DNA of 61,191 nucleotides from the IMG/VR virus record IMGVR_UViG_3300033150_001094, positions 1-61,191 of that record, one strand, 5' to 3'. Below, one piece after another: positions 59,245-60,970 of the stretch; within the stretch, counting starts at the first letter, position 1, and the number at the start of each line of letters is the position of its first letter. Under the pieces are notes generated by a model, which was not told the DNA's origin, did not search any database, and worked only from the letters and a program-made list of their open reading frames with translations. Made by a program: the position numbers and the translations under genes. The DNA is from a virus.

Positions 59245-59290
59245 GGACATAAAGCACCCAGGCCCCGGCGGCGTGGTGGGGACACGCAGG
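59245..59290 (+). repeat. orphan copy of the tRNA-like 5' module
   Basis: GGACATAA-N9-GCCCCGGCGGCGTGGTGGGGACACGCAGG aligns with 60814-60859, but no T-arm follows. Confidence 0.7.
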
Positions 59291-59340
59291 TTTTGCGTTG
59301 GAAAGCTCGTTGAAACGACTACAGCAGAAAGGTGCTTATC

Positions 59341-59763
59341 GTGAAACGCCGTGAATTTCTTGGAAGCATTGTCACATTGCCTTGCCTAGCAGCAACCACC
59401 AAGCACGAGGAGCAGCCGCTTGTCGTGTCGCCGCCGGAGCCCCCAAAGCAACGGTGTCGCGTACACAAAGAACTTTACGTGGAGGTGAAAGTCGATACTG
59501 ATGATCGGAAAATAGTGATTTGTCATGCCTGCCCTGAATGCTATGTATATCACGAGGCAACATTGCCCTGCGAAGCGTTTGATGTTTTCACTATGAACTT
59601 GTATTGCATACATGCACACTACCGGCGCCTCCTGACGCTTCCCGCAGACAGGAAAGAGGTACAAATATACGCACCCATTCCGCACGGCTGGAAAACGGAG
59701 AAACGCCGACTGAAAAGTGTGGCCATTTGGAACGCCCGTGAGCTGTGGATTTGGTCTGGCTGA
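59341..59763 (+). CDS. secreted protein candidate with twin-arginine signal
   Basis: V-KRREFLGSIVTLPCLAA at the N-terminus (GTG start after AGAAAGGTG). The mature part is Cys/His-rich. Confidence 0.5.
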   Translation: MKRREFLGSIVTLPCLAATTKHEEQPLVVSPPEPPKQRCRVHKELYVEVKVDTDDRKIVICHACPECYVYHEATLPCEAFDVFTMNLYCIHAHYRRLLTLPADRKEVQIYAPIPHGWKTEKRRLKSVAIWNARELWIWSG

Positions 59764-59782: not shown

Positions 59783-60241
59783 ATGAAACGCGAGATCGTT
59801 TACAAGGTGGTGCGCGTAGAGGGCGACAAACGCTTGTCAGCCGTCACAAATGGTGTCTGGCAAGTCGAATACAAGCCAGGCAAAGTCACGCGGCCGCGGA
59901 AGCGCACGAAACTACTGGCCTTCAAGTCACGCGAAGCTGCCCTGGATTTCACTCGCTTCATCGCCAAGATCGAGAGAGATGATGTGTTTGAAATCTGGAA
60001 ATGCGAGGCGCGCGATTGCGAAGCCGTGTACAATCTGCCGGGCTGCGGACGCGCAAACGACTTCATAGATTTCTGGCGAAAACTCAGTCGCTGCGAGTTC
60101 TTTTCAGTACGCCCAAGAACGAAAGTGTGCCTTTTTATGGCACCGCCTGGGACTGTTGCCTGTTCTGCACTCAAACTACGGGTGAGGGTCGCTAGATACA
60201 CCAATCGAAAAAAGTCGCAAACGGAAACGGCCAATGATTAG
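59783..60241 (+). CDS. VYKVV-family paralogue 7 (dispersed copy)
   Basis: MKREIVYKVVRVEGDKRLSAV...LLAFKSREAALDF...EIWKCEA...PPGTVACSALKL. Confidence 0.65.
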   Translation: MKREIVYKVVRVEGDKRLSAVTNGVWQVEYKPGKVTRPRKRTKLLAFKSREAALDFTRFIAKIERDDVFEIWKCEARDCEAVYNLPGCGRANDFIDFWRKLSRCEFFSVRPRTKVCLFMAPPGTVACSALKLRVRVARYTNRKKSQTETAND

Positions 60242-60242
60242 T

Positions 60243-60380
60243 GCCTCGGCGGCGTGGTGGGAACACGCAGTTAGACGGAGGGCGTGTTAAGTCCGCGCGG
60301 TAGCGTCCAGACGGAGCCGTCCGGCCGTAGGCGGAGGCGCCAGCGAGCCGGACTACCGGGTTCGAATCCCGGCCGGGGCT
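60243..60380 (+). ncRNA. tRNA-like element 1 (acceptor, D- and T-arms present; 83-nt insert replaces the anticodon region)
   Basis: 7-bp acceptor GCCTCGG/CCGGGGC, D-arm GCGT-ggtgggaac-ACGC, T-arm CCGGG-TTCGAAT-CCCGG. No canonical anticodon hairpin and no CCA. Confidence 0.55.
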
Positions 60381-60472
60381 CTGTAGGCTTGGATAACAGC
60401 AGTGGAACACAGGCGCCGTTTCACGTGGAACATTGACGGAGTACGAAAGGTGAATGCACATGCGCAGGGCGT

Positions 60473-60763
60473 GTGAAATATCGGCACAAGTCGCCACATG
60501 AGGATGATTGGTCGCCGATGTGGCGGGTGTGGCCCGTAACGGCCAGTGACGACTGGTGCAAAATGTGGGAGCCGAAGGAGGAGGAAGACACATACACGCT
60601 TGATGCCACGAAGATCAGCCTGGAAAACTGGGAGGGGTTCAAGCGCGTTCGCAAACGCCCTGTAGTCGTGCATGCTGTCCAATTGCACGAGCCATTCTAT
60701 GTTGACACCAAAGAGGGCCGCATGACGGGCAAGGCCGGAGATTGGTTAAAAGTATCCCATTGA
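60473..60763 (+). CDS. small beta-rich phage protein, C-terminus displaced to the +1 frame
   Basis: ...RKRPVVVHAVQLHEPFYVDTKEGRMTGKAGDWLK then stop. The +1 frame continues YPIDNRIFRDTYEILE* to 60803, which is the ending expected for this common family. Confidence 0.5.
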   Translation: MKYRHKSPHEDDWSPMWRVWPVTASDDWCKMWEPKEEEDTYTLDATKISLENWEGFKRVRKRPVVVHAVQLHEPFYVDTKEGRMTGKAGDWLKVSH

Positions 60764-60830
60764 CAACCGCATTTTCAGAGACACGTACGAAATCTTGGAG
60801 TGAGACGCCGACTGGACATAATGAGTCGTT

Positions 60831-60970
60831 GCCTCGGCGGCGTGGTGGGAACACGCAACCTTGCGCGTCCGCAAAGTAGCTTGGTGAGGCAGGCGAACTG
60901 CGGAAGAAGGTGGCCGAGACCGCTTGGCGTAATAAGGCCGGCCTACCGGGTTCGAATCCCGGCCGGGGCA
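60831..60970 (+). ncRNA. tRNA-like element 2 (same 27-nt ends as element 1, different 85-nt insert)
   Basis: The 5' 27 nt and 3' 27 nt are identical to element 1. A CATAAT box lies 9 nt upstream. The insert forms ACCTT/AAGGT and GGCCG/CGGCC helices. Confidence 0.55.

Follow-up and report, generated by a model that had tools for sequence, protein, structure and literature searches.

Two tRNA-like elements in a viral genome belong to a large phage RNA family with a conserved chassis and variable cargo

Introduction

A viral stretch of 61,191 nucleotides (nt), IMGVR_UViG_3300033150_001094, carries two elements on its + strand that begin and end like a transfer RNA (tRNA) and enclose inserts unrelated to each other. 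What kind of gene has this structure, and what could its insert be for? We refer to the whole stretch as the window, and coordinates given without a locus name are positions in it; the elements, at 60243-60380 and 60831-60970, are called element 1 and element 2. We describe here the RNA family to which they belong, its architecture, the covariation of its tRNA-like body (the chassis) and of some of its inserts (the cargo), its genomic settings and its horizontal movement as a unit. The reading that we prefer, with a probability of roughly 55%, is that elements 1 and 2 are genes for tRNA-derived non-coding RNAs in which the chassis would mature and stabilize the RNA and the cargo would act as the effector.

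Results

Two Elements with Identical tRNA-like Ends

Both elements were located by reading of the sequence, by pairwise alignment and by a mismatch-tolerant pattern search. Their 27-nt 5′ ends (GCCTCGGCGGCGTGGTGGGAACACGCA, starting at 60243 and 60831) are identical, as are their 27-nt 3′ ends (CTACCGGGTTCGAATCCCGGCCGGGGC, last base at 60379 and 60969), with zero matches expected in 100 shuffles. Between these shared ends lie 83 nt in element 1 and 85 nt in element 2, mutually unrelated by pairwise alignment and clustering, just as an initial annotation of the region had stated. The 5′ and 3′ ends close a 7-base-pair (bp) acceptor stem, GCCUCGG/CCGGGGC, which includes a U4-G69 pair. Both elements have the D-arm GCGUG-GUGGGAA-CACGC, with a 5-bp stem, and the T-arm CCGGG-UUCGAAU-CCCGG, with a tRNA-type 5-bp stem, a UUCRANY loop and G53-C61. 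The initial annotation had read these tRNA parts correctly (the 7-bp acceptor with its U-G pair, the D-arm with GG in the loop and the textbook T-arm), and its C8, its G14 and the lack of an encoded CCA in either element are likewise present in the sequence. C8 is followed by G9 in both elements; G18 and G19 are kept, but the U8-A14-A21 core of tRNA is replaced by C8, G14 and C21. The parts are arranged as follows.

60243-60380, + strand: element 1
60243-60249, + strand: element 1, acceptor 5′ strand
60250-60251, + strand: element 1, C8-G9
60252-60268, + strand: element 1, D-arm
60269-60355, + strand: element 1, cargo (87 nt, its final A being conserved in the family)
60356-60372, + strand: element 1, T-arm
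60373-60379, + strand: element 1, acceptor 3′ strand
60380, + strand: element 1, discriminator U
60831-60970, + strand: element 2
60831-60837, + strand: element 2, acceptor 5′ strand
60838-60839, + strand: element 2, C8-G9
60840-60856, + strand: element 2, D-arm
60857-60945, + strand: element 2, cargo (89 nt)
60946-60962, + strand: element 2, T-arm
60963-60969, + strand: element 2, acceptor 3′ strand
60970, + strand: element 2, discriminator A

A Large Family in Phages and Prophages

We searched public viral, genome and metagenome contigs with the exact D-arm sequence alone as the seed. More than 180 loci carry it, in viral contigs, in prophage-like regions of several bacterial phyla and in metagenomes: 25 loci in viral contigs, 48 seed matches in genome contigs and, as a lower bound, more than 120 loci in metagenome contigs. 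Twenty of the genome matches are complete elements, all of them in prophage-like regions; the other 28 lack both the T-arm and the complementary acceptor strand and, with about 17 matches expected for an 18-mer in 596 gigabases, are taken to be chance matches. The hosts include Chloroflexota (one being the isolate Bellilinea caldifistulae GOMI-1, with a member at L042 7828-7934 in its prophage), Planctomycetota, Geobacteraceae and other Deltaproteobacteria, Veillonellaceae, Sporomusaceae, Bacteroidales and Gammaproteobacteria. Extraction by script yielded 136 complete elements, 122 of which are distinct; all these counts rest on the loci listed by exact-seed scans and are lower bounds. That elements 1 and 2 belong to a large phage and prophage RNA family, real and abundant, is thus strongly supported. 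The family, together with a truncated third copy in the window (described below), overturns the initial view that the pair is a local peculiarity of a single phage, and conservation in relatives, which had been raised as a check, is evident from the 122 distinct elements found by the D-arm seed.

BLAST searches of 50,697 deposited phage genomes with the region and with the 5′ end returned no family member; candidates in Aurantimonas phage AmM-1, in haloviruses and in a faecal phage contig were rejected as chance matches. Rfam 15 contained no family for chassis or cargo when the window, 20 loci and 20 short loci were scanned at gathering and E-value thresholds. We found no published description of such a natural family in the full text available to us, a coverage that largely leaves out subscription journals. 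The family is apparently uncatalogued and apparently a new architecture among tRNA mimics, of which tmRNA (transfer-messenger RNA), YrlA, mascRNA, T4 species 1 RNA and the tRNA-like structures at viral 3′ ends are known examples.

Covariation in the Chassis

The members share a common plan, consisting of a 7-bp acceptor, C8-G9, the D-arm described above, a canonical T-arm and no encoded CCA, in an element of 64 to about 480 nt (mostly 93-190). The acceptor 5′ strands comprise 68 different sequences. Positions 8-9 are CG in 117 of 118 elements and G53-C61 is found in 114 of 118; CCA is encoded in a single one of the 118. The T-loop is UUCAAAU or UUCGAAU, i.e., UUCRAAU as in tRNA, and the discriminator is A in 57 elements, C in 37, U in 22 and G in 6.

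As an unbiased test set we used 64 metagenome matches picked by the 19-nt D-arm sequence alone, each with 400 nt of flank. A perfect-stem T-arm was present downstream of the D-arm in 53 of the 64, compared with 8 upstream, and acceptor complementarity extended to 6 or 7 of the 7 positions in 49 of these 53, as opposed to 12% for shuffled partners. In a covariation set of 71 core sequences, two-sided (compensatory) changes occurred at each of the 7 acceptor pairs and each of the 5 T-stem pairs, and standard pairs filled 98.6% of cells versus 31-41% in slid registers. The covariation score was 0.626, whereas shuffles gave 0.125 (0 of 500 reached 0.626) and slid registers 0.055-0.117. G-U/U-G pairs outnumber A-C/C-A pairs by 47 to 9, which identifies the + strand as the RNA strand. 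These comparisons strongly support the view that the chassis is a selected RNA structure.

Unconstrained folding of 115 members returned the acceptor for 110 of them, the T-arm for 103 and the D-arm for 88. A scan for the combination of D-loop and T-loop gave, among the matches listed, mostly chance hits, yet it recovered D-stem variants: one member has GCUAG/CUAGC, with two compensatory pairs, and D-stems of 4 bp and with a G-U pair were obtained as well. Variants of the D-loop in neighbouring elements are GACGGUGA, AUGGGAA and GUGGGGA. Judged from these sequences, the D-arm appears able to form a tRNA elbow, with G18 and G19 meeting the T-loop.

The same data bear on the idea that the ends are a recombination, integration or replication site acting at the DNA level, with the RNA structure being incidental. 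Such a site would sit comfortably with the RecT, exonuclease, AAA_24 and helicase genes nearby, with the movement of elements as discrete units and with a chassis homogenized within one genome (element 1 = element 2). It does not account for the strong covariation of two helices that lie 27-200 nt apart, for the strand-specific, RNA-typical excess of G-U over A-C pairs, or for a tRNA-type T-loop accompanied by G18 and G19; moreover, neither an integrase nor any other protein is consistently linked to the elements. We regard this idea as the least credible of those weighed here.

Diversity, Selection and Exchange of the Cargo

The cargo stands in place of the anticodon/variable region and ranges from 27 to about 200 nt. 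It usually consists of one or two top-level helices followed by a 2-3-nt tail, about half of the cargoes having two or more hairpins, and its last base before the T-stem is A in 107 of 116. No motif common to all cargoes was found. The cargo is purine-rich, and GNRA-type 5-mers (GAAAG, GCAAA, GUAAA, GCGAA) are strongly strand-asymmetric. Relatives exist for some cargoes: in the 140-nt cargo of loci L193, L160 and L174, 15 of 50 predicted pairs are compensatory and there are invariant unpaired stretches, and in the L036 group 7 of 52 predicted pairs are compensatory, of which 3 belong to the cargo and 4 to the acceptor and T stems. Such changes argue that the cargo is under selection where it can be compared.

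Cargo and chassis also occur in different combinations. One cargo is found on entirely different acceptor and T stems (L001, L023, L140), and one chassis bears unrelated cargoes within a single genome (elements 1 and 2). Element 2 is 91% identical to its relatives in L010 and L013 across the element only, the flanking phage sequence being unrelated. This mixing, together with similarity confined to the element, indicates that the elements are discrete, horizontally exchanged units; the D-arm and T-arm would be the likely recombination anchors.

Two side observations concern the cargo. The motif UGACG is present in 31 of 116 distinct cargoes, with roughly 10 expected from a rough composition estimate that was not computed by a tool, and it occurs 33 times versus 5 for its reverse complement. 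A second T-arm-like hairpin lies within the cargo of the element at L003 337-471 (+ strand; GCCGGUUCGAAUCCGGA) and of that at L007 13192-13370 (- strand; GUAGGUGCAAAUCCUAC), which would make these two nested tRNA-like modules within a tRNA-like chassis.

In the window, the following parts of the two cargoes were distinguished.

60282-60298, + strand: element 1, cargo hairpin GCGUG-UUAAGUC-CGCGC (5-bp stem, 7-nt loop, U at the second loop position)
60858-60911, + strand: element 2, cargo domain 1, helix ACCUU (60858-60862)/AAGGU (60907-60911) directly after position 26
60912-60943, + strand: element 2, cargo domain 2, hairpin GGCCG...CGGCC placed as a long variable arm

Element 2 folds with all three arms present. 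The outer helix of its domain 1 holds two more helices, capped by the loop GUGAGG, and the model places this domain as a putative extended arm at the anticodon-arm position; as it is identical in L010, it carries no covariation information. Domain 2 differs from that of L010 by two compensatory pairs (G-C to A-U and C-G to U-A). Element 1 has a folding z-score of -4.17. Its cargo contains GCGUGUU (within 60261-60298), a duplicate of the D-stem 5′ strand, so that an alternative pairing with the D-arm 3′ strand is possible; in the predicted folds this could be a conformational switch or an artefact of prediction.

Relation to Decoding tRNAs

Standard tools found no tRNA in the window, which settles a check raised by the initial annotation: ARAGORN reported 0 tRNA or tmRNA (transfer-messenger RNA) genes over its whole length, and Rfam 15 gave nothing at gathering thresholds, neither tRNA nor intron, with the tRNA model (RF00005) unmatched at E ≤ 10. 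The sole Rfam similarity at E ≤ 10 is to mascRNA-menRNA (RF01684), at 29.0 and 15.2 bits and hence below the gathering threshold of 42.5; the 29-bit match (E = 0.0015) spans the T-arm and acceptor. Across all loci ARAGORN called only two short members, as forced Trp and Ala tRNAs. The idea of a tmRNA or of an alanine identity was rejected, since G3-U70 occurs in only 2 of 118 elements, a D-stem is present and the ARAGORN tmRNA search was negative.

Neither element has a canonical anticodon arm (5 bp, 7-nt loop, U33, R37) at positions 27-43. The earlier statement that no 5-bp stem with a 7-nt loop and U33 can be placed therefore stands for an arm in register, and it needs amending for the element 1 hairpin at 60282-60298, which lies 13 nt past the D-arm, out of register, with U where a tRNA has purine 37. 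Across the family 108 of 116 cargoes contain no anticodon-arm-type hairpin. Such hairpins are weakly enriched (8 versus 2.6 expected), most are out of register, and a canonical stem-loop at 27-43 is found in one cargo family only (L005_298 and L102_1938). The shortest members have cargoes of 27-33 nt with loops of 8-10 nt, leaving no room for an arm plus an intron. No Rfam intron match was obtained and cargo sizes, taken as 27-130 nt for this comparison, are far below those of group I introns; no dedicated bulge-helix-bulge search was made. Intron-containing tRNAs are not supported as candidates, as no canonical anticodon arm adjoins position 26 and no intron core was recognized. The proposal of a tRNA with an unconventional intervening sequence, one of those first made for this locus, thus finds no support, given the single canonical cargo family, the 27-33-nt cargoes and sizes far below group I, and elements 1 and 2 are not supported as intron-containing decoding tRNAs.

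Several tRNA-like genes were observed in or beside members of the family. The element at L005 161-298 (- strand), which is the same as that in L102, has the arm GGCGG-CUUGGGG-CCGCU with anticodon UGG, followed by a 66-nt variable region, and its D-loop is the GACGGUGA variant; this tRNA-Pro(UGG)-like element looks, from its sequence, like an intermediate between tRNA and the cargo-bearing family. A 136-nt tRNA-Val(GAC)-like gene lies about 140 nt downstream of an element at L011 1407-1543 (- strand) and L019 1522-1657 (- strand). It has a canonical D-arm and anticodon arm and a variable arm of about 66 nt, and it passes the Rfam tRNA threshold (45 bits) and is missed by ARAGORN. At L093 205-458 (- strand), L123 2424-2676 (+ strand) and L191, a tRNA-Tyr(GUA) with C8-G9 is followed 75 nt downstream by an element, and the two have the acceptor GGAUCGG in common and nearly the same T-arm. 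In L093 and L123 the cargo includes a 5-bp/7-nt hairpin whose loop, UUCUAGG, holds the amber anticodon CUA; this may be a coincidence or a suppressor-like module.

Could the elements be unconventional decoding tRNAs nonetheless, with inserts that are removed or tolerated and an RNA that is aminoacylated, for instance as a suppressor or frameshift tRNA? The canonical UGG arm of L005_298/L102_1938, the neighbouring tRNA-Val(GAC) that passes the Rfam threshold, the weak enrichment of anticodon-arm-like hairpins, and the acceptor that L093 and L123 share with tRNA-Tyr together with the CUA loop all point in this direction. They are set against the absence of the hairpin from the great majority of cargoes and its usual displacement elsewhere, the negative results of ARAGORN and the Rfam tRNA model on the window, the replacement of U8 and A14, and cargoes too short for group I introns. 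Acceptors and discriminators vary without a single identity set, even the discriminators of elements 1 and 2 being different, and bacteria are not known to have the archaeal splicing endonuclease. A decoding role is in our judgement very improbable.

Genomic Setting and Signs of Processing

The window is a tailed-phage genome with genes for portal, large terminase, DNA methylase, helicase, YqaJ-type exonuclease and DUF5131 (Pfam). Its terminase is 22% identical to the best match among deposited phages, so the phage is far from any cultured one, and a search for related phages via the upstream protein found none. The two elements and the truncated third copy all lie between small + strand open reading frames (ORFs) at the end of the replication/recombination region; no terminator and no strong sigma-70 promoter was called near them. 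The following features accompany the two complete elements.

59262-59297, + strand: truncated third copy, acceptor 5′ strand GCCCCGG, CG, and D-arm with the loop variant GUGGGGA
60817-60822, + strand: CATAAT, a -10-like box 8 nt upstream of element 2, read from the sequence

The truncated copy has 2 mismatches to the 27-mer and keeps the first 10 nt of a cargo (AGGTTTTGCG); its T-arm and 3′ strand are absent. A 39-nt match between the window and the full-length element of L016 ends at 59297. Most likely the copy was left behind by a deletion and now makes up the leader of the next gene. That gene, an ORF at 59342-59763 (+ strand) directly after the copy, opens with MKRREFLGSIVTLPCLAATT, which resembles a twin-arginine or lipoprotein-type signal peptide and is unusual among the neighbouring small early genes. 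A motif, GGACATAA, was also noticed upstream of both the truncated copy and element 2 (CCGGACATAAAG versus CTGGACATAATG, within 59245-59261 and 60813-60830), ending 11 nt before the former and 12 nt before the latter; it may be a shared promoter or a piece of a duplicated unit.

Element 1 begins 1 nt after a stop codon (TAG, 60239-60241), and CATAAT is indeed found upstream of element 2, at 8 nt and not, as the initial annotation had it, 9. A weak -35-like TTGGAG lies 16 nt further upstream of the box, which was not called by the promoter consensus scan; on its sequence the box is a possible promoter of element 2, with a predicted transcription start at or close to the mature 5′ end.

All-against-all clustering of ORFs revealed no conserved protein partner, with no protein family near more than 6 of 128 loci, so that any partners are probably universal host factors. 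Pfam scans covered representatives of a few clusters from earlier, smaller clusterings. The largest neighbour clusters are RecT (6 loci) and AAA_24 (5 loci); in another 5-locus cluster the sole member scanned is the window protein, which matches YqaJ. Most genes of the largest clusters share the strand of the element. The elements are located in tRNA clusters or in early operons of the replication/recombination type, with canonical tRNAs 2-16 nt away in several loci. Their leaders are A/U-rich and the two bases following the discriminator are U-rich. Maturation of a tRNA precursor involves cleavage by RNase P at the 5′ end, trimming by RNase Z or exonucleases at the 3′ end and completion by the CCA-adding enzyme; the A/U-rich leader, the U-rich trailer, the unencoded CCA and the position in tRNA clusters match such precursors.

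Boxes of the form TANNNT show enrichment at 3-9 nt upstream of the elements, a -10-like box is present there in about 17% of them, and a full sigma-70-type promoter lies 6-10 nt upstream in 5. Such spacing would place the start of some transcripts at the mature 5′ end, a pattern into which the CATAAT box of element 2 fits. Downstream of many members, within about 20-60 nt, lie a ribosome-binding site and a start codon.

A conserved hairpin, GUGACA-GCCG-GAGAGA-CGGC, was observed about 5-15 nt before many elements, in L005 (about 30 nt upstream of the element at 298), L018, L024, L061, L093, L124 and L125; it also precedes the tRNA-Val-like gene in L011 and is absent from the window. Its stem covaries (GUCGG/CCGGC, CCCG/CGGG, GCG/CGC) around a constant loop, GAGAGA. 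Candidate roles for this hairpin are a boxB-like antitermination site, a phage-specific promoter element and a processing signal.

This setting raises the possibility that the elements are RNA punctuation, i.e., that the tRNA-like fold is mainly a signal for RNase P and RNase Z that divides an early polycistronic transcript into mRNAs that are separately stable or translatable, in the manner of mitochondrial tRNA punctuation, plant t-elements or MALAT1-mascRNA. Element 1 begins 1 nt past a stop codon, both elements stand between small ORFs of the same strand with no terminator or strong promoter called nearby, translation signals follow many members closely, and the sole Rfam similarity is the sub-threshold mascRNA match. 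A punctuation signal would leave the conserved, covarying cargo and its size unexplained, and there are members with a promoter of their own that starts at +1, and others inside tRNA clusters. Since cutting at these sites is compatible with a scaffold that carries cargo and may be its side effect, punctuation is not an exclusive alternative; as the main function of the elements we consider it improbable.

Discussion

A Proposed Natural tRNA Scaffold with Cargo

How, then, could such an element work if the chassis matures the RNA and the cargo acts? The RNA would be transcribed with the early small-gene operon or, for element 2, from its own promoter. Host RNase P would cut at +1, RNase Z or exonucleases would trim after the discriminator, and the CCA-adding enzyme would supply the unencoded CCA. 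The acceptor/T-arm coaxial helix would be retained and a lineage-specific folded cargo would replace the anticodon/variable region, the chassis lending the RNA precise ends, an L-shaped fold and tRNA-like stability. The cargo would then be an effector on a phage or host target, and the conserved D-arm and T-arm would serve as homology anchors through which cargoes and chassis are reshuffled between phages. The engineered tRNA scaffold offers a parallel, as in E. coli it is recognized by cellular factors, precisely processed and stable, and escapes degradation (PMC3753655). Among the roles suggested at the outset, a scaffold presenting variable modules fits the comparative data best, with a conserved chassis, 99 BLAST clusters of cargo among 122 elements, covariation and cargo swapping.

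Several points weigh against this reading. The reading asks us to infer transcription, processing, CCA addition and an effector role of the cargo. Folding bore out the three arms for element 2, whereas the unconstrained minimum-energy fold of element 1 (-78.0 kcal/mol) swaps the D-arm for pairing with the cargo, the tRNA-like fold (-70.4 kcal/mol) being 7.6 kcal/mol weaker. Covariation within the inserts, also raised as a check for this locus, is found in domain 2 of element 2, in L193/L160/L174 and in the L036 group; the cargo of element 1 has no relative in the collected data, and its structure is unsupported by covariation. Cargo folding z-scores are modest (mean -1.1, with 16% below -2). 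A search of the window for sense or antisense targets of the two cargoes gave nothing above chance, the best match being 13 nt (E = 0.06). Ascertainment explains part of the apparent constancy of the D-arm, the D-stem being invariant in the covariation set because of the seed pattern. C8, G14 and the equivalent of A48 deviate from the tRNA core, and the L-shape is assumed. Lastly, cargo as hypervariable as 99 clusters among 122 elements could be compatible with the top half as the sole functional part.

This last point leads to a decoy or sponge, a role also put forward in the initial annotation, in which the body of acceptor, T-arm and D-arm with its added CCA would titrate host factors that read tRNA shape, and the cargo would be tolerated filler that keeps the RNA out of translation. 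Proposed targets are immune effectors directed against the tails or acceptor stems of tRNAs, such as Cas12a3, toxSAS or MenT-type toxins, and processing or modification enzymes; Cas12a3 is a shape-reading nuclease of tRNA tails (PMC12851939). A chassis conserved across phyla beside hypervariable cargo, an anticodon loop missing in nearly all members, and a location in early/accessory regions of phage genomes are what a decoy would lead one to expect, and another tRNA mimic, YrlA, likewise keeps its D and T stems invariant, presumably for the binding of some factor. A decoy has no need, however, of a cargo of 80-200 nt, and ordinary tRNAs would serve phages equally well. Moreover, compensatory changes and conserved unpaired stretches in cargo families indicate that the cargo itself is selected. 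A decoy therefore seems to us unlikely, if less so than punctuation or decoding.

Returning to a chassis that carries an active cargo, it is tempting to go one step further and view the family as a plug-in platform with which phages of hosts from many bacterial phyla deploy hypervariable effector RNAs (aptamer-like, decoy or regulatory, possibly anti-defence), cassettes being exchanged within the D- and T-arms. We hold this extension tentatively, at somewhat less than even odds. If true, the platform would be to RNA what accessory genes are to proteins, and the laboratory tRNA scaffold would have a precedent in nature. The scaffold reading itself, if it holds, would imply hundreds of new structured RNAs in uncultivated phages, candidate effectors with a built-in handle for expression and purification, and would provide a natural, host-independent chassis for RNA expression. 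It would also mean that a whole class of tRNA-derived genes escapes tRNA gene finders, and it may illuminate the 50-year-old question of the stable RNAs in the T4 tRNA cluster.

Comparison with Known Systems

The engineered tRNA scaffold (Ponchon and Dardel; PMC3753655) resembles the family in that acceptor, T and D arms are kept and a folded insert replaces the anticodon stem-loop. It is artificial, made from human tRNA-Lys3 or E. coli tRNA-Met with a normal U8/A14 core, whereas the family is natural, with C8-G9 and a D-arm of its own; its insert is one closed arm, whereas around half of the family cargoes form two or more hairpins.

Among natural RNAs, species 1 RNA of phage T4 (rnaC, 139 nt) is of the same size class, is likewise a stable phage RNA, is encoded where a tRNA cluster ends and matches the family exactly in its T-arm (CCGGGUUCGAAUCCCGG). 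As in the family, a closing stem is formed from its two ends with long hairpins between. Its closing stem is weak and interrupted, however, it has no D-arm of the family type, and there is no sequence similarity beyond the T-arm. To judge by size, setting and T-arm it would be the nearest natural RNA, with a similarity that falls short of demonstrating homology.

YrlA is, like the family, a tRNA mimic without an anticodon loop, has near-invariant D and T stems and is found in phages; some of its members are cut by RNase P and CCA-tailed. In contrast to the family, in which the acceptor is open and the bottom closed, YrlA is circularly permuted, with a loop-closed acceptor and with ends that form the Ro60-binding stem, and it lies next to rsr. 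No TROVE/Ro60 protein was found among the cluster representatives scanned against Pfam, and no Rfam Y RNA matched.

Like the family, tmRNA combines an open acceptor and a T-arm formed from both ends with a large structured insert and tRNA-like processing. It differs by the lack of a D-stem, by the G3-U70 alanine identity, by a tag frame and by a length of 260-400 nt, whereas the family has a D-stem and cargo down to 27 nt. The tRNA-like folds of mascRNA and menRNA (from MALAT1 and NEAT1) act as RNase P/RNase Z signals; these RNAs are eukaryotic, 56-60 nt long and without cargo, and the family's match to them reflects only a generic T-arm and acceptor.

Class II tRNAs, and phage tRNAs whose variable arm is oversized, have an extra hairpin between the anticodon arm and the T-arm and retain the anticodon arm, unlike elements 1 and 2 and more than 90% of the family, in which a canonical anticodon arm is absent. 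The tRNA-Val(GAC)- and tRNA-Pro(UGG)-like genes, whose variable regions of about 66 nt are found in the same contigs as members of the family, nevertheless suggest a continuum that leads from tRNA to the family.

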